A stretch of 64,000 bases of DNA from an uncultured Rickettsiales bacterium (GTDB lineage Bacteria; Myxococcota_A; UBA796; UBA9615), in contig CAZBDA010000002.1 in NCBI GenBank assembly GCA_964490445.1, positions 6,078 through 70,077 of the forward strand, in the 5' to 3' direction. The number at the start of each line of letters is the position of its first letter. Within the stretch, counting starts at the first letter, position 1. The position numbers and the translations under genes are program-made. Below are positions 5,822 through 58,109 of the stretch, one piece after another. A model generated the notes under the pieces. It was given only the letters and a program-made list of their open reading frames with translations, did not search any database and was not told where the DNA came from.

Positions 5822-6751
5822 TCAACGTCCGAGCAGTCGGGCGGCAACCCGAGCAACTCGTGGGTCCGGATCCGAAAGCAACTCCGCCAGGTTCGGCAGC
5901 TTCACGGTGGCTGACTCGTCGATTCGAGACAGCGCCCGCAACGAGTGCAGACGGACATCAGCCGAAGGGTCACTGAGCAACGGCAGGAGCGGGCCAAACG
6001 CGGCGCCGACCTCGCGCCAACCGAGGGCACGGGCAGCCATGGCACGAACTCCCGCATCGGCATCGCGGACAGCCTTGAGCAGTTGGTCGGCGTAGTCAGC
6101 ACCATCGCTACGCCAACCCACCGATCGGCAGGCCTCAGCGCGGACGCTTGGGACGTCGTCTCCCAACCCGAGTGCGATCCCCTGCCCTGCCGGTGCAGCA
6201 GCAGCCCGACGCATCGACCACACCAGCGCCTCGCGCACATCCGGCATTGCCTCGTCGCGGAGCAGCCTTGTATTGAGTTGGTCCCAGTCCGCGCGCAGGC
6301 CGATCAGCGCCGAGGCCAGGGCCGCGCGCAGCTTCGGCGACTCACCGCCATGAAGGAGGCGCTCAACAACGGCTGGACGAGCTGCCGGATCCCGGAACTG
6401 CGCCTGGGCAAAAATGGGGCGGCCTGCGCGGTCGAGGACAGGGGCAGCAGCACTTACCTCGGCGAACAGCGCCCGCCGATGCCGCCAGCCGAGGATCACC
6501 TCGCTCTGCTGGCGAACCCGCCAGTCCGGGTGCGAAGCCAGGGCCGCCAGGGCCTCGTCAGCCACGAAGCCATCACCGCTCAGCGTATCTCTTTGCAGCG
6601 AGTAGTCGGTGCTGGCCTCGTGCAGGCTGAGCAACCTCTCGCTGAGACCACCCTCGGCAAGAACACTCGCAGGCGCGAGCGACAGAGCCAATGCCGCCAC
6701 CATCGCGGCGACAACAAAAGGAGAACCGGGCCTCGCGAGCAGCGGCAGCAT
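5822..6751 (-). CDS. HEAT-repeat (PBS-lyase-like) secreted protein
   Basis: Signal-like N-terminus (MLPLLARPGSPFVVAAMVAALALSLA). Repeated ..D.D..VR..AA.ALG.. HEAT/PBS motifs. Abuts the stop of the upstream PAD gene. Confidence 0.55.
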   Translation of the reverse strand: MLPLLARPGSPFVVAAMVAALALSLAPASVLAEGGLSERLLSLHEASTDYSLQRDTLSGDGFVADEALAALASHPDWRVRQQSEVILGWRHRRALFAEVSAAAPVLDRAGRPIFAQAQFRDPAARPAVVERLLHGGESPKLRAALASALIGLRADWDQLNTRLLRDEAMPDVREALVWSMRRAAAAPAGQGIALGLGDDVPSVRAEACRSVGWRSDGADYADQLLKAVRDADAGVRAMAARALGWREVGAAFGPLLPLLSDPSADVRLHSLRALSRIDESATVKLPNLAELLSDPDPRVARVAARLLGR

Positions 6752-8448: not shown

Positions 8449-8547
8449 GGTGCCCTCTGGGATTGCGGGTTTGACCAGAGCGTCGCCGACGCCTGACGAG
8501 GCACAACACGACAGCGGCGAAAGTATAGGGCAGCCATGGGGGTTTGT

Positions 8548-9504
8548 TCAGGAATTGTCGTGCCCGGTTCGGTCCTCTACAGCCCAGTAGTGCTGCTTCA
8601 TACAGAACACCGACCCACCAGAAAGCAGAAACTCGCTCGTGTCGAGTCCGAGGACTTCGAAACCTCGCTCGGTCAGCCAGTGAGTGACCCGCTCGGAGCC
8701 CTGCTGCATGAGGACGTGGCGACCGTCCGGGCTGTGGCCGTTGCAGGCCATCCGCATCGCCTCCTCCTCGGTGACCGCCAACGGTTCCTCGAACAAAGTC
8801 TCCAGCATCCGCAACCCGTTCTCGTCAAAAGCGTCCGGGTAGTACAGGGCGGTCTCGTCATCCAGCACCGACAGGCAGGTATCCAGGTGATAGAAGCGGG
8901 GATCGGACAACTGGAAGACCACAATGGGCAGGCCCGTCCAGGCCTGCAGGTACCGATAGGCCTCGGCGCTGCTGCGTGGCCCGACCCCAGCGTACAAGAG
9001 CGCCCGACCCGGGTGCCAGAGAGCATCGCCACCACCCTCGAAGGAGGGCACGTGAAAGGGGTTGAGCCGCTCGATGTGCAGCCCGGCAGCGGTCAGGAAG
9101 TCGGCGACCTGCACGGTCTCGGCCTGCCGCCTGCCCCACTTCATGATGGAGACCACAGCCCCGGGCTCAGGCCCGAGCAGCCCCGCCGGAAGGGGCAGAG
9201 CCTGGTTTGCCGTGAACACGAAGTCGGGAAGCAACGGCACACCGGGCAACACGTCGACGGGAACCCCCAACGACAGGTAGGCATCGTGCAGACTCTTCCA
9301 CTGACAGCGAGCGGCAAACCTGTCGACCCGCCCCAGGTTGCCGTCCATGTGGGGATTGATGACGTACTCGACGTCGAAGAACTCCGGATCAGCCATCAGC
9401 AGCCGGTCTGGGCGCGGCAGTACCGGGAGGTCTACAAGTCGAAAGGAGACGCCCTCGGCGGTGGTGACCAGTCCCATGGCCGAAGCGTCAGTCGGCTGCT
9501 CCAC
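8548..9504 (-). CDS. DDAH-like enzyme, amidinotransferase/guanidino-group-modifying superfamily (dimethylarginine dimethylaminohydrolase-like)
   Basis: The C-terminal motif LGLDTSEFLLSGGSVFCM matches the DDAH active-site end (DTSEY.K.DGGVSCMS). Size is about 318 aa. No signal peptide. Confidence 0.65.
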   Translation of the reverse strand: MEQPTDASAMGLVTTAEGVSFRLVDLPVLPRPDRLLMADPEFFDVEYVINPHMDGNLGRVDRFAARCQWKSLHDAYLSLGVPVDVLPGVPLLPDFVFTANQALPLPAGLLGPEPGAVVSIMKWGRRQAETVQVADFLTAAGLHIERLNPFHVPSFEGGGDALWHPGRALLYAGVGPRSSAEAYRYLQAWTGLPIVVFQLSDPRFYHLDTCLSVLDDETALYYPDAFDENGLRMLETLFEEPLAVTEEEAMRMACNGHSPDGRHVLMQQGSERVTHWLTERGFEVLGLDTSEFLLSGGSVFCMKQHYWAVEDRTGHDNS

Positions 9505-9525
9505 CCCGGATGCTCCCTGCTCGCC

Positions 9526-11460
9526 TTAGTCGGCGATCACCAGCAGCGGGTAGGTGATGTTCTGCGTCTTGCCCTCAAACGGCGGGAAGCGCAGCGCGTT
9601 CACCTCGCGACTGATGCAGGTGTCCAGAGCAGTGCCTGCGTAACGAGACGTGGTAACCCGCGCTCGAGAGACCTGGCCGCTGGGAGCGATCTTGAACTTG
9701 ACGTAGATCTTGCCGGACAGGTCCGGGTCACGGGTTTTCTGCGAGGTAATGCATCGCTTGATGGATTTGTTGCTGCCGATGATGGTCTTGATGATGAAGG
9801 GGTTCGGCGCACCACCCGACGACTTGCTTCCAGAGTCCTTCTTGGCACGCTTGGGCTGCGAGGTGCGTGGGGTCGACGAGGAGCGATCAGCCGACCGGGA
9901 GGCGACCGGTTGCTCAGACCGCCCGGAGGCGCTACGACGCTGGTAGCTCCCGTTAGAGTCACTGCCGGCGATCTCGTCGCTGGGCTGGTAATCCCGTCTG
10001 CGCGAACTGGCCTCACGGCCCGAGTGCGAGCCGCGCCGTTCCGGCACCTTGTCATCAAGTCTGCTCGCCGAGGCCGTTTCCTCGAGGTCTTCCAGGTCGG
10101 ATGCTGACAGTCCAGGCATCACCGGCTCACGGGCCTCGCGGCGAGTTTCACGCTCGCTGCGACGGCTGGAGCGCCTTTCGGCCTCGCGCTTCGCAGACGA
10201 CTCGGATTGCTCCTTCCGGCTGGACTCGGAAGCGGCGCCCCGCGCCGGAGTTTCAACCTCTTCGGCGGGCGGTGTCGCGACCGTGGAGGGGGTGGGCGTA
10301 GCGACCGCACCGCTACCACCTGCAACAGACGCCACCTGCACTGCGGGCCGCGCGGAAGTCTCAGCCTGCAGCCCCTCGTCGGACGAAGCTGCGTCGGAAC
10401 CATCGGAGGGGCTGTACAGGGCAAAGGAAAGGCCTGCACAACCCAGCCCCATCACCACTCCGAGCACCATCGCCGAGGGCAGCTTGGCCGGCCAACGGCC
10501 CTTCTCTGTAACCAGGGCAAGGGCCATGGTGCCCGCTGCGCCGAAGCCCGCCAGGAAGTACCCCAAAGCAGCGAGGCGGCCAGGAACCAGGATGATGAGC
10601 AACAATCCGAGGAAAGCAACGGCTCCGAGCACCCCCGATGTACCGAGCAACGGCGATCCCTGGTGCTCGACCTGGGTGACGGAGGTGTTGCTCGGCGCAG
10701 CCTCGCCCGACGGCGACGTATAGCCCCTACCCATCGGCGACGGCTGGGTCGGGGGAGCCACCGGAAGGGATGGCTGCGATGGCTGGGAGTAGGGCATCGG
10801 GCGCTTGGGGCCTTCCAGCGGCATCGCGGGAATGGCTGCTGGGCCGGCGGCGCTCTGTGCAGCCGCAGCACTCAACACCGGACCCGACGGAGCCGGACCC
10901 CGGTAGACCTGAGTTTGCGGATTGTCCTTGGCAGGAATCGGCGTCATCACGGCGGCACTGGCCGAGCCGTTTCCGGAAGCCGGCGCAGGGGTTGGCGACG
11001 ACATTGGCGCCGAACTCGGCGGAGTGCGGCTCGGAGGCTGGTTCAGACCCGGAATCGAACTGCCCACGGGTAGGGTTCGCGCCGCGTCGGATGGAGCGAC
11101 CGCAACGTCCGCGCCGGCCTGGGCGGCAGGACCGAGAATCGCGGCACTGCTGCCGCCCGAAGCCGAGCTCGGCGCGGAAATAGCGTGCAACTCTGCGGTG
11201 AGGCTGCCCAGGGAGGGCAGGCCGCCATTGGTCATCTGCGCTAGCTTCTCGATGTCGTGGGCCGAGGGGGCAGCAGCCTCGCCGCCGTCAGCGACGGGGC
11301 TGACATTGCCCTTGAGTGTCGAGCGAGCCGAGGCCGGATTGTGGCGAAAGATCACGATCTTGTGCCCGCAGCGCTTGCACGTGGCCCTGTTGATCTCCTT
11401 GACCAGCTTGTGGTCAGCGATCTTGTAGATGGCCTCGCATTTGTCGCAGACGACTCTCAT
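9526..11460 (-). CDS. MJ0042-type zinc-ribbon / TonB C-terminal domain protein (GltJ/AgmX-like architecture)
   Basis: N-terminal CxxC...CxxC zinc ribbon (VVCDKCEAIYKI...CKRCGHKI). Long Pro/Ser/Ala-rich linker, TM helices, a charged low-complexity region, and a C-terminal TonB_C-like fold (IYVKFKIAPSGQV...TYPLLV). Confidence 0.6.
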   Translation of the reverse strand: MRVVCDKCEAIYKIADHKLVKEINRATCKRCGHKIVIFRHNPASARSTLKGNVSPVADGGEAAAPSAHDIEKLAQMTNGGLPSLGSLTAELHAISAPSSASGGSSAAILGPAAQAGADVAVAPSDAARTLPVGSSIPGLNQPPSRTPPSSAPMSSPTPAPASGNGSASAAVMTPIPAKDNPQTQVYRGPAPSGPVLSAAAAQSAAGPAAIPAMPLEGPKRPMPYSQPSQPSLPVAPPTQPSPMGRGYTSPSGEAAPSNTSVTQVEHQGSPLLGTSGVLGAVAFLGLLLIILVPGRLAALGYFLAGFGAAGTMALALVTEKGRWPAKLPSAMVLGVVMGLGCAGLSFALYSPSDGSDAASSDEGLQAETSARPAVQVASVAGGSGAVATPTPSTVATPPAEEVETPARGAASESSRKEQSESSAKREAERRSSRRSERETRREAREPVMPGLSASDLEDLEETASASRLDDKVPERRGSHSGREASSRRRDYQPSDEIAGSDSNGSYQRRSASGRSEQPVASRSADRSSSTPRTSQPKRAKKDSGSKSSGGAPNPFIIKTIIGSNKSIKRCITSQKTRDPDLSGKIYVKFKIAPSGQVSRARVTTSRYAGTALDTCISREVNALRFPPFEGKTQNITYPLLVIAD

Positions 11461-11679
11461 GGGGCTTTCCGAAGATGAGAGAGTGAGCAGAACACCGATC
11501 GGCTGGACCGGCGGAGATGGAGATTTCTACGATAGGGCCGCATTTAAGTCAATAATTAGTCAAGAGTTGCCGATTGCTGAGCTCCAGACGATTGTCCGGG
11601 CCAAATCGGCGAACTCAAGTTGAGTGCACCCCATCCGAGATGCGAAGCGCATCGTGGGGCAGCCTGCTAGGCTCCTGCC
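11461..11679. promoter_or_regulatory. AT-rich divergent intergenic region; probable promoters for the zinc-ribbon/TonB gene (-) and the dNK operon (+)
   Basis: A 219-bp non-coding gap in dense high-GC DNA. Local AT-rich island ...atttaagtcaataattagtcaagagttg... with a direct AGTCAA repeat. Confidence 0.3.
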
Positions 11680-12312
11680 GTGCCGCATCCAGGTGCCAAA
11701 CCACGCAAGTTCATCGCCGTCGCCGGCAACATCGGTGCCGGCAAGTCGACCCTGGTGGACTTCCTCTGCCAGACCTACGGATTTCGGCCGTTTGTCGAGC
11801 CCAACCTGCTCAACCCCTACCTCGACGACTTCTACCAGGACATGTCGAAGTGGTCCTTCCACTCCCAGATCAGCTTCCTGAGCCACAAGTTCCGACTGCA
11901 CATGGAGCTGATGTCCGAGCCGGCGACCGTGGTTCAGGACCGCACGATTTACGAAGACGCCGAGATCTTCGCCCGCCACCTACACTCCGTTGGCCACATC
12001 TCGGATCGGGACTTCGCCACCTACAACCACCTGTACGAGGCGATGCAGAAGGCCCTTGCTCCCCCTGACCTGCTGATCCGGCTCAATTGTTCAGTGCGGG
12101 CTCTACGCAAGCGCATCCGCAAGCGCGGCCGCAAGAACGAGCAAGACATCCCAGCCACCTACCTGAAGCAACTCAACCAACTCTATGATCGCTGGTTCGA
12201 ACGCTATGAACTCTCTCCGGTAGTCGAGATCAACACCGAGAAACTCGACTACATTTCGGATTTCCTGGACCGCCTCGAGGTACAGAACGCCATGGAGCCC
12301 TTCTTATTGTGA
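11680..12312 (+). CDS. deoxynucleoside kinase (dAK/dGK/dCK family)
   Basis: P-loop AVAGNIGAGKST, the DRTIYED..IFA motif and an overall ~210-aa dNK layout. Its stop overlaps the start of the next gene. Confidence 0.8.
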   Translation: MPHPGAKPRKFIAVAGNIGAGKSTLVDFLCQTYGFRPFVEPNLLNPYLDDFYQDMSKWSFHSQISFLSHKFRLHMELMSEPATVVQDRTIYEDAEIFARHLHSVGHISDRDFATYNHLYEAMQKALAPPDLLIRLNCSVRALRKRIRKRGRKNEQDIPATYLKQLNQLYDRWFERYELSPVVEINTEKLDYISDFLDRLEVQNAMEPFLL

Positions 12313-15272
12313 GCATCACCGTCCAGCTCTGCCGCACGACTGCACTGCTCGGCCTGCTCGCGCTGCTCGTGGCCGGCTGCCCGAAGCAGAAGGAGATCCC
12401 ACCTCCCGAGGCGCCCCAGGGCGAGGGGCCGATCGACAAGATCCTGGACCTGTTGGAGCGGGACCGCGACGACCTGAGCCTGCCTCGCTCCGAAGAAGCT
12501 GGTTACCAGTTACCGATGACCTACCCCGTCGTGGAAGCGGCGCTCTCCCGCCCCCTCGCTGTGCCTCCCTGGGCCGAGCAACTGGGCGCTCGCCTGGACG
12601 CTGCTGGCAACGCCGGACAATTGTGGGCGGCCCTGCGGCCGCTGTCGCCAGCGGGATCCGCAGCAGACCCACCACGAGGCGAGACTGAGCAGGCGGTCGC
12701 GGGCAGCCCAGAACCGCGCCTGCGTCGCACATCTCCGGCGGCGCTGCCGCGGGACGCCTTCGCAACCAAGCAGGCCGCCGTGCAGACAGAGCAACTCCCA
12801 GAGGAGTTCGTCACCCTACTGGTGGAGTTGGCCGGGCTGCTCCAGGACCTCGAAGCCGAAGCCGAGAGCTGGTATCGACTCGAGGGCTTGATCCGCCGAC
12901 CCAATCGCGCCGCCGAGGAGTTCTTCATCGACCGCTACAGCGGCGAGTTCCGCTTCAGGACCCATCCGGTTGGAGTGCAGCTTGAGTTCCTGCGCAGCGC
13001 CATGTTCATCGACCAGCAAGCGATCAGCCGTTCCGCCGCCAGGCTGGTGCTGGAACTTGAGCGCCTTTTGCCGCTGCTGGCAACTGCCGCCAAGGAACTG
13101 CCCGACAGCGGGGGCCGCCTGCTGCACCTGCCCACCCGACTCGGCCCAATCATCGTCGGCAGCACCGGTAGCGACCTGCACGAGGAGGATGCCTTCCTGC
13201 TCGTTGACCCCGGCGGTGCCGACCAGTGGCACAACAACGCCGGCTCCAATGTCGGCCTCAGCTCTGCCCTTGCGCTGGCCGTCGACCTCGACGGCAACGA
13301 CCAGTACCGGAGCAACCGTGGCCACAGCCAGGGAGCCGGCTTCATGGGCATCGGCATGTTGGTGGACTGGGGCGACGGAAACGACCAGTACACGGCTGGC
13401 GCGCAGAGCCAGGGAGCCGGCTTCATGGGTATCGGCATGCTCTGGGAGCGGGGAGGCAACGACTCCTACCGTAGCTATGGCTTCAGCCAGGGTGCCGGCA
13501 CCTTCGGCGTCGGCGTCTTGCTCGACGAAGGAGGCGATGACCGCGCAGTGGCCGGCAGCCGTGCCCAGGGATTCGCCTCCAGCGGCGGACTCGGCGTGTA
13601 TCTCGACCTCGCCGGCAACGACGAGCGTCGCATCGGCACGCCCAGCGGCAAGGAAAACAGCGTCGAAGGTGGCGGCGGACAGGGAACCGCCTGGGGGACG
13701 CGTCCCTTCCCCTGGACCAACGATCTCAGCCTGCATGGCGGAGTCGGCCTTCTCTACGACCGTGCCGGCAACGACCGCAATTTCGCACGCGCCTACGGAC
13801 AGGGCAGCGCCTGGTTCCTGTCGTTGGGCCTGTTGCTGGATCGAGCCGGCAGCGACCAGTACCTGTGTGGCCAGAATTGCCAGGGGAGTGCCGAGCACCT
13901 GGCGGCTGCACTGCTGCTCGACAGCGACGGCAACGACCGCTACGAGGGCAGCCAGGACCTCCAGGGCTTCGCCGACGACCGATCCGTGGGGATCCTGTGG
14001 GACCGAGGAGCGGGCTCGGATCTGTACCGACTCGCGGAACGGGGCCGCGTGAAACCCGCCGAAGTCGGCCGAGGGCAGGGCTACGCGCGCCAGCCCCACG
14101 CACTCGGAGTGCTGGTCGACAATGGCGGCGACGACCAGTACGTGTCCTTTCGGGAAGCTCTCGGCCACGCGGAGCCGACCCGGCACCCGGGTCGCAATCC
14201 CACCGCCCTGCTCATCGACCTGGCCGGGAAGGACCGCTACACAGAGGGACAGAGTCGTGCTGGCGCCATTCCCCGCGACAAGAGCACCTGGCTGCAAGGC
14301 GACCATGCCGCCGGACTCGACACTTTCGTCGCCTCACCCGGCTGGGACGTTGCCAGCTTCGAGCCGGCAGAAGGCTTTGCCGGGCTCGGTTGGAACCGAG
14401 CCCTCCTCGATCCTCCTCCCGCGAATGATGACAACGAGACCGCTGCTGGAAACACCTCCGAAGATTCCTCCAACGACGTCGCCATACCTGCTGACAGCGA
14501 CCGATTCACCCCCGACGGCGATGCCGTAGCCCGCTGGACCTGGCTGCAGAACCGATACCGAGAGCGCGTCACCACGGAGCCGACAGCAGCCCTGGAAGAG
14601 CAGGAGCTTGACCAGTTGCGCCAACTGGCAGGCAGCGACCCGTCGACAAGCGTACGTCGCGAAGCCGCCCGACTCCTGGTCAGCGCAGGCGACACCCTTG
14701 GCCTACGGGTGCTCATCGCCTCCCTTGGCCATGCCAGCCAGGACAATCCAGGTGGCAAGCGGGGTACCGGCGAACTGGGCGCATTCCTGAACCTTGTCAC
14801 AGGGACGGGGCTCCACTTCGACGCCGAACAATGGAGCCGTTGGTTCCAGTCCGAGGGCAAGGATCTGGACCTGGCGACTCGTTGGCCTGCCGTTGCGCTG
14901 CTGGAGGCCGCCGCGGCCTCGGCGACGGCCGGCGAGATCGAGAAAATGGCAGACCAGTGCATGCAGGCCCGCGAACTCCTTCCGGACGACTCCTGGATAG
15001 ACGCCCGATCCGGGGCACTAGTGGGCCACTGGGCCTGGGTACTCGGGCATCCCGAGTCGCACGCGAACCGCAACGCCGACCTGGCAGTGGAGTTGGCAAC
15101 TCTCTGGACCGTCTGGCACCCCGACACCGCACAATCCTTCATCACCCTGGCCCAGGCCTGGTTCACCCAGGGGGAGTACAAGCTCGCTAGCCTGGCGCTG
15201 GACAAGTCGGCAATTCTCGACCCCGACAACATCCGAATGACCGCCCTGCGACGCGCCATGGAGAATCGATAG
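12309..15272 (+). CDS. large repeat lipoprotein (N-terminal helical region, ~11 tandem ~27-aa G[ND]D.Y...QG.G..G.G.L.D repeats, C-terminal HEAT/TPR-like region)
   Basis: Lipobox LLVAGC|PKQ. Repeat units such as GNDQYRSNRGHSQGAGFMGIGMLVDWGD / GNDQYTAGAQSQGAGFMGIGMLWERG. A near-identical 30-mer occurs at 13329 and 13413. C-terminal TPR-like helices. Confidence 0.6.
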   Translation: MSITVQLCRTTALLGLLALLVAGCPKQKEIPPPEAPQGEGPIDKILDLLERDRDDLSLPRSEEAGYQLPMTYPVVEAALSRPLAVPPWAEQLGARLDAAGNAGQLWAALRPLSPAGSAADPPRGETEQAVAGSPEPRLRRTSPAALPRDAFATKQAAVQTEQLPEEFVTLLVELAGLLQDLEAEAESWYRLEGLIRRPNRAAEEFFIDRYSGEFRFRTHPVGVQLEFLRSAMFIDQQAISRSAARLVLELERLLPLLATAAKELPDSGGRLLHLPTRLGPIIVGSTGSDLHEEDAFLLVDPGGADQWHNNAGSNVGLSSALALAVDLDGNDQYRSNRGHSQGAGFMGIGMLVDWGDGNDQYTAGAQSQGAGFMGIGMLWERGGNDSYRSYGFSQGAGTFGVGVLLDEGGDDRAVAGSRAQGFASSGGLGVYLDLAGNDERRIGTPSGKENSVEGGGGQGTAWGTRPFPWTNDLSLHGGVGLLYDRAGNDRNFARAYGQGSAWFLSLGLLLDRAGSDQYLCGQNCQGSAEHLAAALLLDSDGNDRYEGSQDLQGFADDRSVGILWDRGAGSDLYRLAERGRVKPAEVGRGQGYARQPHALGVLVDNGGDDQYVSFREALGHAEPTRHPGRNPTALLIDLAGKDRYTEGQSRAGAIPRDKSTWLQGDHAAGLDTFVASPGWDVASFEPAEGFAGLGWNRALLDPPPANDDNETAAGNTSEDSSNDVAIPADSDRFTPDGDAVARWTWLQNRYRERVTTEPTAALEEQELDQLRQLAGSDPSTSVRREAARLLVSAGDTLGLRVLIASLGHASQDNPGGKRGTGELGAFLNLVTGTGLHFDAEQWSRWFQSEGKDLDLATRWPAVALLEAAAASATAGEIEKMADQCMQARELLPDDSWIDARSGALVGHWAWVLGHPESHANRNADLAVELATLWTVWHPDTAQSFITLAQAWFTQGEYKLASLALDKSAILDPDNIRMTALRRAMENR
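13280..14325 (+). repeat. intragenic tandem repeat array (~81-bp period, degenerate) encoding the GND.Y...QG.G repeats
   Basis: Repeated agccagggagccggcttcatggg(c/t)atcggcatg and ggcaacgaccagtac-type segments at regular spacing. Confidence 0.6.
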
Positions 15273-16297
15273 TGGCCCTCTTTCTGGAAATCGAAACCAC
15301 GCTCCATTCACTGCCCGAGTTGGCTTCTGTGCTCGATGAACTCGACCAGACCTTCGGCGCTACTGTCCAGTTGAACACCATCCAGGCCCTGGACCTCGAC
15401 TGTGGGGTTCGCAAGGTCTCCTGGTGTCCCTGGCCGGATGAACGAATCGAGTTGTTCATTGCCGGTGCCAGCACCCGAGGTACCGACATCATCGTCGAGC
15501 AGCAGGGCAGCAGCGTGCTGCTACGCGTGTGTCTGAAGGCCCTCTCTACCTGGACCGACTGGCAACTGGGAGTCGAGGCAGCCTGCGTGCTGGCCGATCG
15601 TAGCGGTGCCGCAGGCATCCTCTGCAGTGAAGACAGCGAGCAACTGCAGGACCCGGAGACGCTCCGGAAACGACTACTCGATGACGACGAGTTGTACTGG
15701 AACGAGTGCGAGGGTGGCGCAATGGGCATTCGCCGAGCGGTAGTCGAACAGGGCGAGATCGTGCGCATCGGCGGCCCAGCCGGACTCGCCGCCATTGGCC
15801 CGCGCACCTGGGCAAAGTTCGAGGGCAACCCGTTGGACGGCGAGGAACTGAGCTGTGTGATCCTCGATGCGATGCGCGCCAGTATCGAGGCGCGCGGGTT
15901 CGAAGGATTTCACCTCGCCAATCCGATGATTCTCGACGGTCGATCCGGACAGTCCGTGGTCGCCCTGCTGGTGGCCCCCGACCAGCCCACCTTGTTGCGT
16001 GACACCGAGTACCTGGTGCTGAGCGAAGACCTCGAGGGTGCCGCCGGAGCGCCGCTCTACATGCTGCCCTACGAGGACATCGACAAGGCATTCCCGGCGT
16101 CGGTCGCGTGGCTGGACGACCGCAACTGTGCGCTGGCGGCAATTCCGGCCGCGAGTTGGGCGCGCAGACTCGAAGAGATCAAGCCCATGCTCTTAGAGGT
16201 CGACCAACTTCTTGACCAGCGTCCTGTGCCAGCAATCCCTCCTGCCAGCCGCTCCGAAGAAGCCACTGCGACCGTTCGAAAGTCGAGTTCGGTCTGA
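15272..16297 (+). CDS. hypothetical protein
   Basis: 341-aa ORF. Its start coincides with the stop of the repeat-protein gene. No recognisable motif. Confidence 0.45.
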   Translation: MALFLEIETTLHSLPELASVLDELDQTFGATVQLNTIQALDLDCGVRKVSWCPWPDERIELFIAGASTRGTDIIVEQQGSSVLLRVCLKALSTWTDWQLGVEAACVLADRSGAAGILCSEDSEQLQDPETLRKRLLDDDELYWNECEGGAMGIRRAVVEQGEIVRIGGPAGLAAIGPRTWAKFEGNPLDGEELSCVILDAMRASIEARGFEGFHLANPMILDGRSGQSVVALLVAPDQPTLLRDTEYLVLSEDLEGAAGAPLYMLPYEDIDKAFPASVAWLDDRNCALAAIPAASWARRLEEIKPMLLEVDQLLDQRPVPAIPPASRSEEATATVRKSSSV

Positions 16298-16329
16298 ACA
16301 GCGCAATTGTTCTGCTAGCCTGAGCCGCG

Positions 16330-18138
16330 ATGTTTACAGTCGCCAACCTGGGTCGTGTCTGCGACATGCTCGTCTCAGACGGCCTGATGCACGACGGTCA
16401 GATCAAAGACGTAATGGTCCGCTACTCCATCCAGGAGAAGCGCATCCTGATCGACCGTCGCAACCACTTGCGCAAAGCAATGGGGGGGCGTCGGGTCAGC
16501 TACGAAGTCGGCGAAATGGAGCTCATCGCCAGCTTCAAATTCCCGCTACTCGGCCGGGAAGGACAGAAACTCACCGAGCACCTGATCACCGAGTGCGTGG
16601 CTCGCCACCTGGCCATGCCCTTCCTCATCCCGGACCCCACCAAGCTGGACTACAAGTTGATCACCGGCACCTTCCCCGGGCAATTTGCCGAGCGCCACCT
16701 GATCATCCCCATCCGCAAGACCAAGAAGAGCGTCACTCTGGCGGTCGCCAACCCATTCGATACCCAGCTGCTGGAGAGCTTGCGGCGCTACACCGGCTCC
16801 GATATCGAGTTGGTCCTGGCCCCCAAGAGCGAACTGCTCAAGACGATCATGGAATTCCACGGCTTCAAGAAGTCCGTGGACCTGGCCGCACAGCAGTTCA
16901 GCAACGAGTTCGACGACCTGGGGAACCTCGAGGCTCTCTCGAAGATGAAGGCGCTGGAGGACATCGACGCCTCCGATCAGCCTGTGATCCAGGCCGTCTG
17001 GTTCCTGTTTAACTACGCCTTCGACCAGCAGGCATCCGACATCCACATCGAGCCCAAGCGGGACACCTCGGAAGTACGGCTGCGCATCGACGGGGTACTG
17101 CACCGCATCCACGTGATGCCGAAGCTGGTGCACCGGGCGGTGCTCAGCCGTATCAAGACGCTGGCACGCATGGACATCGCCGAACAGCGGCGACCCCAGG
17201 ACGGACGACTGAAGACCACCTTCAAGGACAGCGAGATTGAGCTGCGAGTATCGACTGTACCGACGGCCTTCGGCGAGAAGGTGGTCGTGCGGGTGTTCGA
17301 TCCCGAGGTCCTGACCCAGGAGATCGCACAACTCGGCATGTTCGCCCCCGAGCAGGAGTTGTTCGAGAGCTTCGTGTCACGAACCAACGGCCTGGTGCTG
17401 GTCACCGGCCCGACGGGCTCCGGCAAGACGACCACCCTCTACAGCACTCTCCAGTTCCTGTACTCGGCGCAGGTAAACATCACCACCATCGAAGACCCCA
17501 TCGAGATGGTCCGCGAGGAGTTCAACCAGATCTCGGTGCACAAGCGGCTCGGTATCAGCTTCTCCTCGGCGCTTAGGAACGTGCTGCGCCAGGACCCCGA
17601 CATCGTCATGGTCGGCGAGATCCGTGACCAAGAGACGGCCGAAGCTGCCGTGCAGTCCTCGCTCACCGGCCACCTTGTCCTGTCGACCCTGCACACCAAC
17701 GACACGGCAACCTCGGTGACCCGCATGCTGGACCTCGGCGTCCTGCCATTCCTGCTGTCATCCGTATTGGTAGGTGTCATTGCCCAACGGCTGGTGCGCT
17801 GCATCTGCGAGCACTGCAAGGTAAGCACCCTGCTCAACCACGATCAGATCATGTCCCTGAACATTCCTGGCGCCGAAGGCCGGGAACTTCGAGTCGCCTA
17901 CGGAGCCGGCTGCGCCAAGTGTCGCGGCACCGGCTACCGGGGCCGCACCGGCGTGTTCGAAATCATGCCAATCAACCCCCACATCCGCTCCTTGATCCAG
18001 CAGGAAGCCAGTGCGGACGCCATTCGCCGCGAATCGCTCGCAGAAGGCATGATCACGATTCGGGAATACGCCATCAAAAAGATGGCCATGGGCGTCACGA
18101 CCTACGAAGAGGTCGTGCGGGTCACCAGCGAGAACTGA
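16330..18138 (+). CDS. GspE/PilB-family secretion ATPase (T2SS/T4P-type traffic ATPase)
   Basis: N-terminal GSPII_E_N-like domain. Walker A GPTGSGKTTTLYS, Asp box, Walker B DPDIVMVGEIRD, His box LSTLHTND, and the tetra-Cys motif CEHC...CAKC. Confidence 0.85.
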   Translation: MFTVANLGRVCDMLVSDGLMHDGQIKDVMVRYSIQEKRILIDRRNHLRKAMGGRRVSYEVGEMELIASFKFPLLGREGQKLTEHLITECVARHLAMPFLIPDPTKLDYKLITGTFPGQFAERHLIIPIRKTKKSVTLAVANPFDTQLLESLRRYTGSDIELVLAPKSELLKTIMEFHGFKKSVDLAAQQFSNEFDDLGNLEALSKMKALEDIDASDQPVIQAVWFLFNYAFDQQASDIHIEPKRDTSEVRLRIDGVLHRIHVMPKLVHRAVLSRIKTLARMDIAEQRRPQDGRLKTTFKDSEIELRVSTVPTAFGEKVVVRVFDPEVLTQEIAQLGMFAPEQELFESFVSRTNGLVLVTGPTGSGKTTTLYSTLQFLYSAQVNITTIEDPIEMVREEFNQISVHKRLGISFSSALRNVLRQDPDIVMVGEIRDQETAEAAVQSSLTGHLVLSTLHTNDTATSVTRMLDLGVLPFLLSSVLVGVIAQRLVRCICEHCKVSTLLNHDQIMSLNIPGAEGRELRVAYGAGCAKCRGTGYRGRTGVFEIMPINPHIRSLIQQEASADAIRRESLAEGMITIREYAIKKMAMGVTTYEEVVRVTSEN

Positions 18139-18152
18139 GGCAAACGCGGCTC

Positions 18153-18713
18153 TCAATCGTCCCCGCTGTCCTCCGCAGCCACGGACTGCTTGTCCTTCAG
18201 CTTCTTGAGTTCGACAGTAGCGGCACGCCGAACCTGGCTGTGGGGATCACGCAGAGACATGTCCTCCATGATCCGCAGCGAACCCGCTGAACCGACACGC
18301 GCCAGCGCAGACAGCGCATACAACCGCACCTTGAACTCGGCGTGGTAGGCCTGAGTCTGCAGCACTGGAACGGCGCGGGTGTGACCGATGTGGCCCAGGC
18401 CTTCGATGGCTCCGCAGCGAACCATGGTGGACACCTCGGGCTCACTCAAGGCCTCCACCAGCGGCTTCATGCCCGCGACACCCCCCAATTGCCCCAGGGT
18501 GGCGAGGGCAGCCGCACGAAGGCGGTGCAACTTCTCATCGCCACCGCCGGTCACGGCAATCGTATAGAGCAGACGCATTCCCTGTGCGCCAAGCGCGCGC
18601 CACTGGTCACGACTCGCCGAACTGCCGCCTTTGAGGTAGGCAATCACGCGCCGCTCGATCTCGGCGGAGGTCAGGACGGGCGCATCAGTCATCGCCACTG
18701 CAACGGTTTCCAA
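18153..18713 (-). CDS. HEAT-repeat (PBS-lyase-like) protein
   Basis: Repeated ...VR..A..ALG..G motifs (EVSTMVRCGAIEGLGHIG; FKVRLYALSALARVG; SQVRRAAT). Confidence 0.55.
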   Translation of the reverse strand: METVAVAMTDAPVLTSAEIERRVIAYLKGGSSASRDQWRALGAQGMRLLYTIAVTGGGDEKLHRLRAAALATLGQLGGVAGMKPLVEALSEPEVSTMVRCGAIEGLGHIGHTRAVPVLQTQAYHAEFKVRLYALSALARVGSAGSLRIMEDMSLRDPHSQVRRAATVELKKLKDKQSVAAEDSGDD

Positions 18714-18736
18714 GCGGCTGATGCGAGAGTCAACTA

Positions 18737-20146
18737 CTAGTTCCCCGACCCGGTTCCTGGCTCGGCCGGCTCGCTCATGCCCATCAGCTTGCGGAAGCGG
18801 GCATGGCCGTGGAGGCTGCCCAGGTCGGGATCGTGACGGGCAAAACCGAGCTCCGTAAAGCCGAGTTCGATGGCCTGCTCGAGCATGTGCAGGCTCTTGT
18901 CCTCGTCGCCGTTGAGGGCGTACAGGCAGGCCAGGTTGTACGAGACGTAGACCGACTCCGGCTCCAGCTTGAACAACTCCTCGAGAAGCCCCCTTGCAAC
19001 ATCGAGGTCATGGCGACGGTAGGCCTGCAGGACCTCCCGGTTGAGTTCGTCGGAACGCTTCCACAACGCCAGTTCAGCGTCTGAAGGAGCCGGCCAGCGG
19101 CGCTCGCGACCCGCTACCATCTTCTGGAAGGGCACCGCAGGGCTGTCCTGGTACCAGTAGGCCACTGCGCCGATCCGGTCGGTCCGCTCGTTGTTCGAGC
19201 CGTGGTCGAGACGCAACTCGATGGACTCGTCAAAGGGCACCGGGTCCGTCAGGTGAAAACGGTACACGCTGCTGCGCGCCTGGACGCGGTTGCCCTCGTC
19301 GAGCGTCGTGCCCTGGAACGAGCCGTTGGTCTTGGACAGACCGAAGATGCTGCCGAAATAGTTCAGCGCCGGGATGGACGCGGGTCCCTTGTTCGGGTCA
19401 CCGTCCACCAAAAAGTGAACTGCGCCTGTGCCCCAGGCACCCGGCGTGGTGTTCTGAGCTGCTAGCGAGAGGCCAACGTACTGGCCGCGGCCACTGGCAC
19501 GGAGCACGGTCAACGGCACGCCCTTCTTGGGCGCGGTCTCCTGGCTGTACTGGGCGTGGAAATACAGGGTTCCGTCCGGCAGCGCATCCACGACCCGGTA
19601 GTCCACCTCCCAGCGCAGCTGGCGGGTCTCGTGGTTGCCCTCGTTGACGAGACTGATCTTCGCCGACGCCTTGAAGGGCATCTTCCACAGACAGGCAAAG
19701 GACCGTCCCTGGGAGTGCACAGCGATGGGCAGCGACTGCAGGCTCTGTCGCACCCCGGGCCCGACCGCAAAAAAGTCGCCGATGGGCGCCTCGACCGAAG
19801 GACCTGCAGCGCCATCCCAGGTGATGCGTACCAGGATGTCGCGTGGGAACGTGTCGGCGCCCTCGATGGCAATCCAGAGCCGGTCGATGACGGCCGGCCC
19901 CTCGATGTCAGCGATGACTATGGACTCACCCGGGGCCAGTACCGTCTCAGCGCTGTTGTCCGCCGAAGACGCGCGGCCGGGACGGCCCTGGGTCTGCTGC
20001 GTCAGCGCATCGAGAGTACCGCCGGACTGAACCTTGACGGCCTGGCGACCCCAACCACCAGCGCAGGCTGAAGCGGGAATGACAAGCAGCAGGAGCAGCG
20101 CGAACAAGGCGCTCTTGCGTAGAGCGGTGGAAAACGAAAGCGGCAT
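18737..20146 (-). CDS. secreted DUF2961/GH172-like domain protein with C-terminal TPR
   Basis: Signal peptide MPLSFSTALRKSALFALLLLLVIPASA. The central region resembles DUF2961 (..IDRLWIAIEG.., ..AVHFLVDGDPNKG..). C-terminal TPR (YNLACLYALNGDEDKSLHMLEQAIELG). The longer ORF-track start at 20374 looks like spurious upstream extension. Confidence 0.45.
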   Translation of the reverse strand: MPLSFSTALRKSALFALLLLLVIPASACAGGWGRQAVKVQSGGTLDALTQQTQGRPGRASSADNSAETVLAPGESIVIADIEGPAVIDRLWIAIEGADTFPRDILVRITWDGAAGPSVEAPIGDFFAVGPGVRQSLQSLPIAVHSQGRSFACLWKMPFKASAKISLVNEGNHETRQLRWEVDYRVVDALPDGTLYFHAQYSQETAPKKGVPLTVLRASGRGQYVGLSLAAQNTTPGAWGTGAVHFLVDGDPNKGPASIPALNYFGSIFGLSKTNGSFQGTTLDEGNRVQARSSVYRFHLTDPVPFDESIELRLDHGSNNERTDRIGAVAYWYQDSPAVPFQKMVAGRERRWPAPSDAELALWKRSDELNREVLQAYRRHDLDVARGLLEELFKLEPESVYVSYNLACLYALNGDEDKSLHMLEQAIELGFTELGFARHDPDLGSLHGHARFRKLMGMSEPAEPGTGSGN

Positions 20147-20204
20147 CAAAGGGGTCTCCGGCGCGAGGGTTCCGGAGCGGGCGCACCCCGGGACGCGCAT
20201 TCTA

Positions 20205-21029
20205 TCAAAGGCCAGATATGCCGTGTTCGCTATTGGCGACGAGCCGCTCCCGCTCTTCCAAAGCCGCCAACTTGGCCCGTTTCTGCCCACGTCGCTTCCA
20301 GGCGGCAACGAGGAACAGCACACTCGCAAAGCCCCAGAATGCGTTCTGACCACCCAGCAGCGGCACCAGGGCATGCCAGATGGTCATCCGCTTGCGCCAG
20401 CCCTGCTCCAGTTCAGCCAGCGGCCGGCCGGTAGCAGAAGCGACCGCGGACGGTAGATCCCTGCCAGCTGCGAGTTCCTGGATCATCGCCGACAGGACCC
20501 CCTCTCCCTGCCGAAAAATGTAGGCGACAAAGTCCACCGATTGCAGGTAGGCGAGGCGGGCCTGGCGACTACCCGTGGGCCAGCTTCGGGTAATTTCCTC
20601 CATCGGCAACAGCGAGTTGGAAACCGCCGCACGAACCAGGACCGCCTGGTCCGAGGGGCGCATCTCGCCGGCGAACAGCATCGCAACACCCTCCTGCAGC
20701 CAGCGGGGGGGGCGTCCCTCGTCAAAAACACTGCCCACCATGATGTGGCAGAGCTCGTGGGTAAACGTCTTCTGGATGGGGTCAGGGCCGGTATGAGGTA
20801 GCCCCGTACGTAGGTAGATCTCCCTCCGCACCGGCCAGGCAGTGCCCACAGCCCAGCTCGGAGGAGGGCTCGGCTGCAAACGGGAGAAGGACTCGAAGTC
20901 GGACGCCAGGATGACGTCGATGTGCTCGGGGATTGGCGTCCCCGTGGCCATGGAAATGTAGTCCACTGTGGACGGGCCGATGTCGGAGATCGCCTGTGCA
21001 AGGCCAGCATCGTGGTCGCGGTAGTACAT
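20205..21029 (-). CDS. HExxH zinc metallopeptidase-like protein
   Basis: HELCH motif (TFTHELCHIMVG). A C-terminal TM helix followed by a coiled/charged tail. An in-frame hydrophobic signal-like segment lies upstream with no start codon. Confidence 0.5.
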   Translation of the reverse strand: MYYRDHDAGLAQAISDIGPSTVDYISMATGTPIPEHIDVILASDFESFSRLQPSPPPSWAVGTAWPVRREIYLRTGLPHTGPDPIQKTFTHELCHIMVGSVFDEGRPPRWLQEGVAMLFAGEMRPSDQAVLVRAAVSNSLLPMEEITRSWPTGSRQARLAYLQSVDFVAYIFRQGEGVLSAMIQELAAGRDLPSAVASATGRPLAELEQGWRKRMTIWHALVPLLGGQNAFWGFASVLFLVAAWKRRGQKRAKLAALEERERLVANSEHGISGL

Positions 21030-21181: not shown

Positions 21182-24100
21182 TCAGCCCGCCGCTCCGGTG
21201 TGCCAGTCCTGCACCGACTGCACTTCGAAATCTCGCTCGGCCAAAGCTGCGATGCCGGTCACCATGGCATCGGCTGCCGCCAGTGTCGTCAGGCAGGGAA
21301 TGTTGTACTGCAAAGCAGCCATCCGAATGGCCCGCTCATCAAAGCGGGACGTTCGGCCCATCGGCGTGTTGACGATCAGGTCGACCTCATCGTTCTTCAC
21401 GTAGTCCACCAGGTTGGGCCGACCCTCGTTGACCTTGTAGATGGCCTGGCAGGCAATGCCCGCATCCTGCAGCGATTTCGCCGTACCGCTGGTGCCAATA
21501 AGGTGGAAGCCGAGATCACAGAGACGCTCGGCGATGCTCGGCACCTGCTGCTTGTCTTCGTCATTCACAGACAGGAAGACCGTTCCCCCGGTTGGCACTT
21601 TCTCACCGCCTGCCATGGTTGCCTTGGCAAAGGCCTGGCCGAAGGACTCGGCGATGCCCATGACCTCGCCAGTGGACTTCATTTCCGGCCCGAGCAGCGG
21701 ATCGGAGCCCGAGAGCTTGCGGAACGGCAGGACCACCTTCTTGACGGAGAACATGTTGGGCACCGGCTCTTCGCTGAAGCCGACCTCGGCAAGAGTCTTG
21801 CCGACCATCAGTAGCGCAGCGATCTTGGCCAGCGGCACTCCTATCGCCTTGCTCACAAATGGCACTGTGCGGGAGGCTCGCGGGTTCACCTCGAGGGTGT
21901 AGAGATTGCCCTCGTGGATGGCAAACTGGGTGTTCATGAGGCCGATCACCCCGAGGCCGCGGGCGAACCTGCGCACGATGTCGCGCATCTCATCGAGCAG
22001 CTCTTCGGAGACACCGTAGGCAGGCAGGACGCACGACGAGTCGCCGGAGTGAATCCCAGCCTGCTCGATATGCTGCATGATGGCTCCCACCACCACGTTG
22101 CCTTCCTTGTCGGCCAGGCAGTCGACGTCGATCTCTTCAGCGTTCTCCAAGAACTTGTCGATGAGCACAGGGCGGCTGGGATCGATTGCCAGGGCGTCCT
22201 GCATGTAATGGCGCAGGCGCTGCTCCTCGTAGACGATCGCCATGCCACGTCCGCCGAGCACGTAGGAGGGACGAACCAGTACGGGGTAACTCAACTCATC
22301 TGCGATCTCCACCGCAGCATCAACGCTCAGGGCCGTGCCACCGTGGGGAACCCGAGCCCCCACTTCACGAGCCAGGGCGAGAAACTCATCTCGATCCTCG
22401 GCGCGATCGATGGACTCGGGAGGAGTGCCGAGGATCTGGACGCCAGCCTCCTTCAGAGGGACCGCCAACTTGAGCGGCGTCTGGCCACCGAACTGGACGA
22501 TCACGCCCATGGGCTTCTCGACCTCCAAGATCCCCAGTACCGATTCCAGGGTCAACGGCTCGAAAAACAGGCGATCGACCATGTCATAGTCGGTCGACAC
22601 GGTTTCCGGGTTGAGGTTGACCATGACGGTCTCGAAACCGGCCTCACGCAGAGACAGGGCGCCGTGGACACAGCAGTAATCAAACTCGATGCCCTGACCG
22701 ATTCGATTCGGACCGCTGCCAAGGATCACGACGGTCTTATTGCCCTCCTTAGCCCCGGGAAGCTCGCTTTCGTCGCTCTCGTAGGTGGAGTAGTAGTACG
22801 GGGTCTCAGCCTCGAACTCCGCCGCACAGGTGTCCACCGCCTTGTACACCGGGACCAGGCCGTCCTCGATGCGACGAGCGCGCACCTCTTGCTCCGAGAC
22901 CTTCAGCAGGTGCCCCACCTGGATGTCGGTAAAGCCGTCACGCTTGGCAGAGCGCAACCCTTCGCTGGAAAGAGCCTCCAGGGAGCCCACCTCTCGCAAC
23001 TCTTCCTCGCGCTCCACCAACTGCTTGATCTGGTCGAGGAACCAGGGATCGATCCCCGTATGTTCGCGAAGCTCGGGCACCGTCATGCCGAGCCGCAGGG
23101 CATGGCGGAGGAAGAAGATGTTGTCGGACTGAGGACGGCTGAGTCGCCGCCGAATCGACCGCACCAGTGCGGCACGGGTCTCGGGCCCCTGGTTCGGATC
23201 GAGATCGATCTCGTCGTGACCGTCGGCGCCCAGGCCGTGGCGGCCCTGCTCGAGACTGGCGAGCCCCTTCTGCAGGCTCTCGCGGAAGGTCCGTCCGATG
23301 GCCATCACCTCGCCCACCGACTTCATCTGCGTGCCGAGCGTCGCGTCTGCCCCGGGGAACTTCTCGAAAGCCCAGCGAGGGATTTTCGTGACGACATAGT
23401 CGATGGTCGGCTCGAAGGCGGCAGGAGTCTTCTTGGTGATCGCGTTGGGAATTTCGTCGAGGCGGTAACCCACCGCCAGCTTCGCCGCCATGTGAGCGAT
23501 GGGAAAGCCCGTCGCCTTCGAAGCCAGGGCCGAGGAGCGGGAAACTCGTGGATTGGCCTCGATGACCACCATGCGCCCGGTCCGAGGATTGACACCGTAC
23601 TGGATGTTCGAACCACCCGAGGCGACCCCAATCTCACGGATAATGGCCAACGCCGAGTCACGCATGAGCTGGTATTCGACGTCGCTCAGAGTCTGCGCCG
23701 GGGCGACCGTAATCGAGTCTCCGGTATGCACACCCATCGGGTCGAAGTTCTCGATGCTGCAGACGATCACGACGTTGTCCTGCAGATCGCGCATCACCTC
23801 CAGTTCGTACTCCTTCCAGCCGATGATCGACTCCTCGAGAAGCACCTCACCAACGGGCGAGTTGCGCAGGCCCCACTCGACGATCGAACGGAACTCTTCG
23901 CGGTTGTAGGCAATTCCACCCCCGGTGCCGCCCATCGTGAACGAGGGGCGGATGATGGCCGGGAAACCCGTGGTTTGGACCAGGCGCTCGGCGTCGTCCA
24001 TGTTGTAGGCGAAACCGCCGCTGGGCATCTCCAGCCCGATCTTGTCCATGGCCTTCTTGAACAGAGAGCGATCTTCTGCCTTCTGAATCGCCTCGATATT

Positions 24101-58079: not shown

Positions 58080-58109
58080 TGCAGTTCCAGGCAACTCAGT
58101 GAATGGAAG

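Follow-up and report, generated by a model that had tools for sequence, protein, structure and literature searches.

A divergent TfpB-like ATPase encoded apart from pilus genes in a Myxococcota-like bacterium

The ATPase encoded at 16330–18138 of the plus strand in the 64 kb window, which is the whole stretch of DNA analysed here, is probably a divergent motor of the TfpB type with a stand-alone gene, and the three genes that precede it probably do not contribute parts to its machine. This is the best overall explanation of a locus of four plus-strand genes at 11680–18138, for which the ORF map confirms the operon-like layout described by the first-pass annotation. The order of the genes is deoxynucleoside kinase (dNK), a 987-residue repeat lipoprotein (REP987), a 341-residue hypothetical protein (HYP341) and the ATPase. 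The locus reveals no new secretion mechanism. Instead, an apparently orphan secretion ATPase can be explained by the family of second extension motors that was described in 2021 as TfpB.

According to this explanation, the ATPase would be a Myxococcota-type TfpB, that is, a PilB-like, hexameric extension motor of type IV filaments that is encoded among unrelated genes. Most likely, it would dock on a PilC/GspF-type platform of a T4P or related machine encoded elsewhere in the genome, and the docked motor would then help to start or to drive filament extension. The dNK, REP987 and HYP341 are best explained as proteins that are not parts of the pilus machine.

Domains and family placement of the ATPase

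The 602-residue ATPase has the domain order of a canonical type IVa PilB: a GSPII_E_N/MshEN (N1E) domain (PF05157, residues 95–176, nt 16612–16857, E = 4.3e-15) is followed by the T2SSE core (PF00437, residues 215–597, nt 16972–18120, E = 3.9e-123). The core includes a Walker A motif (GPTGSGKT, residues 360–367), an Asp box (EDPIE, residues 388–392), a Walker B motif (DPDIVMVGEIRD, residues 422–433) and a His box (residues 446–456). In addition, there is a Zn-binding tetracysteine site, typical of extension ATPases, which is formed by CEHC at residues 493–496 and CAKC at residues 528–531, with cysteines that align with those of Geobacter PilB. Motif location and the alignment to Geobacter PilB show that the catalytic motifs are all intact, and the Walker, Asp, His and tetracysteine motifs are all shared with canonical PilB. 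The best relatives among solved structures are likewise PilB proteins from Geobacter and Myxococcus (5zfr, 5tsg and 3jc8, with 397, 389 and 369 bits). Unlike canonical type IVa pilB, however, the window gene has no adjoining pilC or pilT, and the RLG motif for c-di-GMP appears not to be conserved in its clade.

The region preceding the N1E domain is particular to this clade. In an alignment of 17 members, the N-terminal ~75–80 residues (nt 16330–16569) are clade-specific and conserved. The c-di-GMP motif of MshE is said to have been defined by Wang et al. in 2016 as two 24-residue RLGxx(L/V/I)(L/V/I)xxG... repeats at the extreme N-terminus. In MshEN domains, the two 24-residue motifs are separated by a 5-residue spacer (review PMC11656802). 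When the same 17 members were checked by eye, one helix of similar pattern was seen, with different spacing, and the second motif was not evident. The arginine of the RLG motif is replaced by N, E, Q or A across the members.

Family placement was made by model scores, and here the ATPase reaches 629 bits against TfpB (NF053534), compared to 524 bits against GspE (TIGR02533) and 518 bits against PilB (TIGR02538). The TfpB match is near full length, as residues 35–599 of the protein align with model positions 17–582. The same preference is seen in clade members that are 67, 61 and 56% identical, with ~630 bits for TfpB and ~500–540 bits for the other models, so that in four members of the clade TfpB leads the next model by ~100 bits. 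Control ATPases from canonical operons behave in the opposite way: they score best on GspE or PilB, with TfpB in last place and 100–165 bits lower. Two of these, L025 and L111 (639 and 631 bits), pass the GspE cut-off of 630.25 bits and have adjoining T2SSF or Secretin genes. The window ATPase does neither, although it shares the superfamily of T2SS GspE, is similar to it in length, and JGI labels members of the clade "general secretion pathway protein E".

The window ATPase lies under all three cut-offs, which are 850 bits for TfpB (an equivalog model), 675.65 bits for PilB and the 630.25 bits for GspE. As 629 bits is below the equivalog cut-off, orthology with the characterised TfpB is not established. 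Among the closest metagenomic relatives are true TfpB proteins, 43–47% identical, with scores of 853, 866 and 869 bits. From these sequence scores, the ATPase appears to be a divergent TfpB family member, with PilB, GspE and MshE more distant. The first-pass description of a GspE/PilB-type traffic ATPase thus stands at the level of the superfamily, while the clade, which had been left between PilB, GspE, MshE or another group, is TfpB-like by model scores. The motor motifs and the solitary gene, which lacks pilC, pilD and pilT, are common to the window ATPase and the TfpB of A. baylyi. They differ in that A. baylyi belongs to the Gammaproteobacteria, whereas the window ATPase comes from Myxococcota-like MAGs (by source names), and in the N-terminal ~75 residues, which belong to the clade of the window ATPase only. 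This placement would extend the TfpB family well past the Gammaproteobacteria, where it was defined, to a conserved subclade of ~600-residue proteins in marine Myxococcota-like MAGs.

Genomic setting of the ATPase and its relatives

When all large genes of the 64 kb window were scanned against Pfam, neither T2SSF, Secretin, N_methyl pilin and prepilin peptidase nor an additional T2SSE was detected, which upholds the earlier observation that the ATPase has no partner gene there. Neither the window nor the ~10 kb past its left end yielded a platform protein, a secretin, a pilin, a prepilin peptidase or PilT. As positive controls, identical scans picked up T2SSF next to a PilB-like gene from Planctomycetota, and all of Secretin, T2SSF and N_methyl next to a GspE gene from Chlamydiales. 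A defence system at the locus was considered separately and rejected, as PADLOC returned trivial P-loop matches only.

The solitary location extends to the relatives. The gene records around the sister-lineage ATPases L029–L031 contain no pilus or T2SS genes, a Pfam scan found none at L020 or in one ORF of L017, and an HMM search found no T2SSF at L017–L021. A metagenome scan, which used P0208 as the query and was aimed at the subclade with 64–67% identity, was dominated by a generic pattern and returned relatives with 43–54% identity, and these served as an outgroup and as a sample of TfpB. T2SSF is absent near 79 of the 80 nearest relatives, 31 of which are flanked on each side by 3 kb or more, and the single exception is a true GspE. 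A second T2SSE ORF is present at none of the 80 loci. No family of neighbours recurs in more than 10 of the 80, and the neighbours that could be identified are housekeeping genes. Genes that score as true TfpB are present in metagenomes of soil and of aquatic habitats, and housekeeping genes surround nearly all of them. As a stand-alone location is a trait of the TfpB family, the solitary ATPase lends no support to a new export system.

TfpB was named for lacking the synteny of pilB with pilC (Ellison et al. 2021, PMC8213720). In A. baylyi, TfpB and PilB are both required for T4P extension, so that TfpB is a second extension motor, and natural transformation needs TfpB (PMC8213720). PilB is also present in 15 of 16 species that have TfpB (PMC8213720; PMC11656802). 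It was suggested that multiple extension motors may be common (PMC8213720), and the result for the window ATPase supports this suggestion. The function of TfpB has been studied in one gammaproteobacterium only. A role as the sole motor has been suggested for P. fluorescens A506. The literature on M. xanthus PilB/GspE paralogues and on orphan extension ATPases yielded nothing on an orphan ATPase of this kind, and no mention of UBA6601, a MAG of this lineage (DJIF01), was found in the literature.

It is unlikely, although conceivable, that the ATPase clade has left type IV filaments and acts as a regulatory or signalling ATPase, or as a motor with a different membrane partner. The conserved, clade-specific N-terminus, the variable RLG arginine and the lack of pilus genes in any context looked at are each consistent with such a role. 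A signalling role is also documented for PilB, and in M. xanthus it is reportedly for exopolysaccharide. The candidate partner would be a membrane protein: in the lineages with 56–58% identity, a gene without a Pfam match overlaps the start of the ATPase gene (L020 and L031), and the translation of the L020 gene reads as a polytopic membrane protein. However, a membrane protein of this type is absent upstream of the ATPase in the window's own lineage. In addition, the ATPase keeps every catalytic and Zn-binding motif that an active motor has, and TfpB, the closest characterised relative, is a true pilus motor, both of which argue against such a role.

The upstream genes and their linkage to the ATPase

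The dNK gene (210 residues, 11680–12312), the REP987 gene (12309–15272), the HYP341 gene (15272–16297) and the ATPase gene are all on the plus strand. An AgmX/GltJ-like Zn-ribbon gene on the minus strand (9526–11460) is divergent from dNK. The intergenic region between the two (11461–11679) is the likely promoter region, since no other non-coding stretch of notable size precedes the four genes. The first two junctions are as the first-pass annotation gave them, with a 4-nt GTGA overlap between dNK and REP987 (12309–12312) and contact between REP987 and HYP341 at 15272, which is a 1-nt overlap in TAGTG. The gap before the ATPase gene (16298–16329) is 32 nt and not the 33 reported earlier, and in relatives it varies from 9 to 55 nt. 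GC3 is 0.74–0.84 in all four genes, typical for real genes of this 64% GC window. A promoter scan of 11300–18800 gave no match to the sigma-70 consensus, which is uninformative for the host phylum. Two terminator-like sites were found in 11300–18800, compared to 4.2 expected by chance; both are within the ATPase coding region and none is in the gap at 16298–16329. The four genes are probably co-transcribed in the source genome, and this is best explained as a reflection of local gene packing and not of a common mechanism.

The first-pass annotation had identified the four products correctly as a kinase, a lipoprotein with an unclassified repeat, a hypothetical protein and a PilB/GspE-type ATPase that is full-length and has every motif, and had raised their co-occurrence in relatives. 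This co-occurrence was found: in 14 of the 16 distinct loci the four genes are syntenic and face the same way, and REP identity there falls as low as 41%. In the remaining two (L009 and L010), the block of dNK, REP and HYP lies in the opposite orientation to the ATPase gene. The identity among relatives is 73–90% for the ATPase (comparable to CarB), 73–89% for dNK, 41–65% for REP and 40–69% for HYP.

The dNK matches PF01712 with 170 bits, where the cut-off is 27 (E = 6.7e-50), over residues 12–206 of its 210, and thus has a full-length kinase domain with a P-loop. It is best explained as a cytoplasmic salvage kinase whose gene is an old neighbour of the ATPase gene. Adjacency is retained down to 67% ATPase identity and in both orientations, as the two genes are head-to-head in L029, and the head-to-head gaps in L009 and L029 are only ~30–56 nt. 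This could be functional if the TfpB-like motor drove a competence-type pilus and the dNK phosphorylated deoxynucleosides from imported DNA, and the need for TfpB in A. baylyi transformation points the same way. Elsewhere in the window, clustered genes encode secreted proteins in which a ComEA-type HHH motif, a lamin-tail domain and a ComEC-like metallo-beta-lactamase domain are found. We nevertheless consider this coupling of DNA uptake to salvage very unlikely. The matches to ComEA and ComEC are weak (E values between 1e-3 and 1e-5) and 21 kb distant, and dNK is absent beside the ATPase gene in the lineages with 56–61% identity and at all 80 metagenomic TfpB-type loci. Furthermore, the AgmX-like and Peptidase_MA neighbours are as conserved as dNK in L029, so that inherited synteny explains the adjacency of dNK and ATPase.

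Slighter still is the chance that this adjacency and the secreted cluster of ComEA-like, ComEC-nuclease-like and LTD-like proteins form a DNA-scavenging module of marine Myxococcota-like bacteria. Here, the TfpB-like motor could power a DNA-capturing filament while dNK salvages the deoxynucleosides, and REP987 and HYP341 could be accessories specific to the lineage, such as a surface binding protein that depends on Ca2+. In a variant of this idea, the ATPase clade could be independent of any PilC-type platform.

REP987 begins with a signal that ends in LLALLVAGC, in which Cys24 is conserved in at least 90% of 50 homologues. The lipobox pattern is [LVI][ASTVI][GAS]C. Due to this lipobox, REP987 should leave the cytoplasm via Sec and lipoprotein processing, without a traffic ATPase. 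The protein has 12 repeats with a core of 26–27 residues, which no Pfam or NCBIfam model matched. The predicted architecture consists of an N-terminal helical domain (residues ~40–260), a beta-solenoid of 12 coils (residues 295–659, nt 13191–14285), a disordered linker (residues ~707–731) and a C-terminal TPR/HEAT-like helical domain (residues 739–986). The solenoid is predicted to be of the Ca2+ type, and the model resembles the Ca2+-dependent beta-helical region IV of the Marinomonas primoryensis RTX adhesin/antifreeze protein (PDB 3p4g). The two are 19% identical in sequence, and the coil of 26–27 residues in REP987 contrasts with one of presumably ~19 residues in 3p4g. They also differ in context, as helical and TPR domains flank the solenoid in the lipoprotein REP987, whereas the M. 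primoryensis protein is a giant adhesin secreted by a T1SS.

HYP341 is a cytoplasmic alpha/beta protein without a Pfam match of its own. In a profile search, its remote homologues P0287 and P0291 score 41 and 31.6 bits against DUF4299 (PF14132, cut-off 31), and from its sequence HYP341 appears to be lineage-restricted and remotely DUF4299-like. DUF4299 is a family without known function, so this likeness adds no mechanism. A fold search with HYP341 gave no match to PilM, GspL, PilZ or other known motor partners. As REP987 and HYP341 are found only in the marine Myxococcota-like lineage that carries this ATPase subclade, the best explanation would have them as a lineage-specific, translationally coupled pair that was inserted between dNK and ATPase, with REP987 as a Sec/Lol-exported lipoprotein that combines a putative Ca2+-type beta-solenoid with a TPR domain.

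There is a very slight chance that the four genes are instead the dedicated, non-canonical export or assembly system proposed in the first-pass annotation, in which the ATPase, perhaps with HYP341 as a cytoplasmic adaptor, would power the surface display or the assembly of REP987 in the manner of the T2SS-dependent lipoprotein pullulanase, but with no recognisable platform or secretin. The tight packing and shared direction, the restriction of REP and HYP to genomes with this ATPase subclade and the likeness of the solenoid to a domain of a secreted RTX adhesin are compatible with such a system. The comparative evidence argues against it. Sister lineages that carry the clade (L017–L021 and L029–L031, with 67, 61 and 56–58% identity) have neither REP nor HYP next to the ATPase gene, the block is inverted in L009 and L010, and the supposed partners diverge much faster than the ATPase does. 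The REP repeat module is also present across several phyla and, outside this lineage, does not adjoin ATPases. REP987 carries its own lipoprotein signal, a solitary gene is the rule across the TfpB family (79 of the 80 relatives above), and no polytopic platform is present in the window. PilB-type motors are not known to work without one. The proposed export system is therefore not sustained, and the divergent stand-alone TfpB-type motor is preferred.

The locus also defines two uncharacterised families with confident structure models, the REP family with its 26–27-residue repeat of the predicted Ca2+-type beta-solenoid and the DUF4299-related, cytoplasmic HYP341. One point against the preferred explanation is that 14 of the 16 loci retain the four-gene order and have very short gaps between the genes, which would also fit a degree of functional coupling.

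The four-gene locus and its source lineage

The locus consists of four plus-strand ORFs encoding a deoxynucleoside kinase (dNK; 11680-12312), a 987-aa repeat lipoprotein (REP987; 12309-15272), a 341-aa hypothetical protein (HYP341; 15272-16297) and a 602-aa PilB/GspE-type traffic ATPase (16330-18138). The ORF map places them where the first-pass annotation had put them, and in all four GC is enriched at third codon positions, as in genuine genes of this window (64% GC). The identity of the kinase is confirmed by Pfam (E 6.7e-50). At the first junction the genes overlap by GTGA, at the second by one base (TAGTG), and a gap precedes the ATPase gene; here, the two junctions described earlier as overlapping or zero-gap are both overlaps, and the gap is corrected from 33 to 32 nt. 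As the gaps are short, we infer that the four genes are co-transcribed in the source genome, without sharing a mechanism. Elsewhere on the plus strand, the antisense ORFs at 21914-24778 (954 aa, opposite carB) and 8536-10107 (523 aa, opposite the DDAH/AgmX genes) are high-GC artefacts and not genes.

REP987 and HYP341 have no matches in Pfam, NCBIfam or PADLOC. The lipobox cysteine of REP987 is conserved, and a confident AF2 model (pLDDT 91.6, pTM 0.91) predicts, from N to C terminus, a helical domain, a 12-coil beta-solenoid, a disordered linker and a TPR-like domain. Each solenoid coil has a core of 26-27 aa with the consensus hGhLhDxxGNDxYxxxxxxQGxGxxG. This module also occurs in other phyla, in fusion with PDZ or HEAT domains, and no traffic ATPase lies near it in the two such contexts inspected. 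JGI calls for loci L001 and L003 (7189-8943) shorten REP987 to 584 aa via an internal start, and the call for L002 is 5980-8943. The 987-aa form is favoured because of the ENA call and the alignment of homologues with their conserved lipobox. In locus L015 (184-3392), the homologue is divided between two ORFs that overlap, reflecting a frameshift/pseudogene or an assembly error.

The locus sequence also turns up on contigs from marine metagenomes, up to 260 kb long, and the relatives are MAGs labelled Deltaproteobacteria bacterium UBA6601 or Myxococcota bacterium. Many MAGs with the locus (L008-L021) bear the label 'uncultured Rickettsiales' or 'uncultured Enterobacterales'; these labels are unreliable, since a GC3 of 0.9 and the gene content fit Myxococcota-like genomes.

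An intact, stand-alone PilB-type motor of the TfpB family

The ATPase comprises a T2SSE core (E 3.9e-123) and a GSPII_E_N/MshEN domain, with Walker A, Asp box, Walker B, His box and two CxxC pairs all present, so that Pfam and motif location agree with its earlier description as full length. Its closest relatives of solved structure are the Geobacter and Myxococcus PilB proteins. The N-terminal ~75 residues are conserved within, and particular to, its clade, and the RLG arginine of the MshE-type c-di-GMP motif is not conserved there.

On the NCBIfam models the ATPase scores 629 bits for TfpB (NF053534), 524 for GspE and 518 for type IVa PilB, each below its curated cut-off. Its homologues form an unbroken series of ~600-aa proteins from 90% down to 56% identity, and members at 67, 61 and 56% rank the models alike, with TfpB at ~630 bits and leading by ~100. 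As controls, ATPases from canonical operons rank TfpB last, the Chlamydiales protein exceeding the GspE cut-off (639 bits) and the Planctomycetota protein scoring best as PilB. A metagenome scan returned relatives of 43-54% identity at 80 loci. Ten of these were scored: three exceed the TfpB cut-off of 850 bits (853, 866 and 869), two are N-terminally truncated fragments (843 and 848), four are intermediate (628-684) and one is a true GspE (631). The TfpB lead across the clade, together with relatives grading past the cut-off, indicates by sequence that the window ATPase belongs to a divergent TfpB-family subclade.

Platform protein, secretin, pilin, prepilin peptidase and a second traffic ATPase are all absent from the 64 kb window, where every large gene was compared with Pfam, and from ~10 kb past its left end, covered by a Pfam-annotated gene record. 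The absence of the first four from the window, as first reported, thus holds. The canonical contexts serve as positive controls: the Chlamydiales homologue is flanked by a Secretin gene on one side and T2SSF (platform protein) and pseudopilin genes on the other, and the Planctomycetota homologue is followed by T2SSF. Sister-lineage contexts contain no pilus or T2SS genes, as examined by gene records (L029-L031), Pfam (L020 and one L017 ORF) and a T2SSF HMM (L017-L021). Among the 80 metagenomic loci, 31 of which extend 3 kb or more to either side, T2SSF occurs once, beside the GspE, and a second T2SSE ORF never. Genes that recur next to these ATPases have housekeeping functions (ArgA-like, M20 peptidase, class IV aminotransferase, CYTH, GlnE, PhoU_div), each family in at most 10 of the 80.

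These data agree with published TfpB, which was named in Acinetobacter baylyi for the absence of pilB-like synteny with pilC; there, pilus extension and transformation require TfpB together with PilB, and PilB is also present in 15 of 16 TfpB-bearing species (PMC8213720; review PMC11656802). The "orphan" location is a trait of the TfpB family.

Upstream genes and the role of the ATPase

The order dNK-REP-HYP-ATPase is kept in 14 of 16 distinct loci of the window's own lineage, so the check for co-occurrence suggested earlier comes out positive in close relatives. Identities across these loci are 73-90% for the ATPase, 41-65% for REP and 40-69% for HYP; in degree of conservation the ATPase roughly matches CarB, and the other two evolve much faster. 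In the remaining loci, L009 (5616-9965) and L010 (4436-8848), an in-place inversion puts the dNK-REP-HYP block head-to-head with the ATPase gene, the divergent dNK and ATPase starts being only ~30-40 nt apart in L009 and separated by an extra 296-aa gene in L010. In the 67% sister lineage (L029), AgmX-like and dNK genes on the minus strand are followed by ATPase and Peptidase_MA genes on the plus strand, and REP and HYP are absent. All three upstream genes are missing from the ATPase loci of the 61% and 56-58% lineages. The upstream genes are therefore separable from the ATPase in evolution, and REP and HYP, being absent from sister loci, are a lineage-specific insertion. A functional unit is further argued against by the inversions, the rate mismatch, the small number of HYP341 homologues (33 in a word-seeded search) and the REP module occurring in other phyla with no traffic ATPase nearby in the two contexts inspected.

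We lean towards the ATPase serving, as a second extension motor or the sole one, a type IV filament machine whose genes lie elsewhere. A role unconnected with filaments, or with another membrane partner, is unlikely; the pilus-free sister contexts would suit it, and the role of TfpB in A. baylyi pilus extension speaks for a filament motor. A DNA-uptake/salvage link with dNK is improbable: the kinase is an older neighbour of the ATPase, and the AgmX-like and Peptidase_MA genes are equally old neighbours, so that inherited synteny suffices. Least probable is a dedicated REP export system, and the non-canonical export or assembly system first suggested is unsupported, as a TfpB-family ATPase normally stands alone, the block is inverted in two loci and REP and HYP are absent in sisters, despite the order kept in close relatives. 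The ATPase is a new divergent TfpB-like protein beside two uncharacterised lineage-specific genes.

Other genes near the ATPase and in the window

In the 56-58% lineages, an unknown gene lacking a Pfam match runs with a start/stop overlap into the TfpB-like ATPase gene (L020, ~7500-9283; L031, 8490-10001), and an unknown ORF in L017 (6807-9992) terminates just upstream of it. The L020 translation looks like a polytopic membrane protein, which could be a lineage-specific membrane partner. Zn-ribbon/TPR proteins are also encoded close to the ATPase gene in both L020 and L031.

Upstream of the window's locus, the minus-strand gene at 9526-11460 has a 644-aa product. This protein ends in an AgmX/PglI (GltJ/GltG-like) domain, its long centre is of low complexity and rich in Pro, Ser and Ala, and it also carries an MJ0042-type zinc ribbon; the gene still adjoins dNK in the 67% lineage. 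Beyond it lies a minus-strand block (5822-9504) that is conserved wherever this flank was recovered in the lineage. The block groups the gene for a HEAT-repeat protein with those for a DDAH-like amidinotransferase and a protein-arginine deiminase of eukaryotic type (PF03068, E 6e-65); deiminases of the PF03068 family are uncommon among bacteria.

Downstream, a minus-strand GH172/DUF2961 gene (18737-20374) has a C-terminal TPR 'end-of-group' domain, and its start is uncertain because the longest ORF is 545 aa and public calls give 469 aa. The cluster at 39509-46547 encodes four proteins with signal-peptide-like N-termini. Two are metallo-beta-lactamase proteins, one of which weakly matches the beta-lactamase-like domain of ComEC (E 1e-5); the third has a lamin-tail domain, and the fourth, of 781 aa, carries a ComEA-type HHH_3 motif. 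Together they may bind and process DNA outside the cell or in the periplasm. Finally, the product of a minus-strand gene at 54759-58094 (1111 aa) contains the PmbA/TldD metallopeptidase C-terminal domain twice and looks like a tandem fusion.
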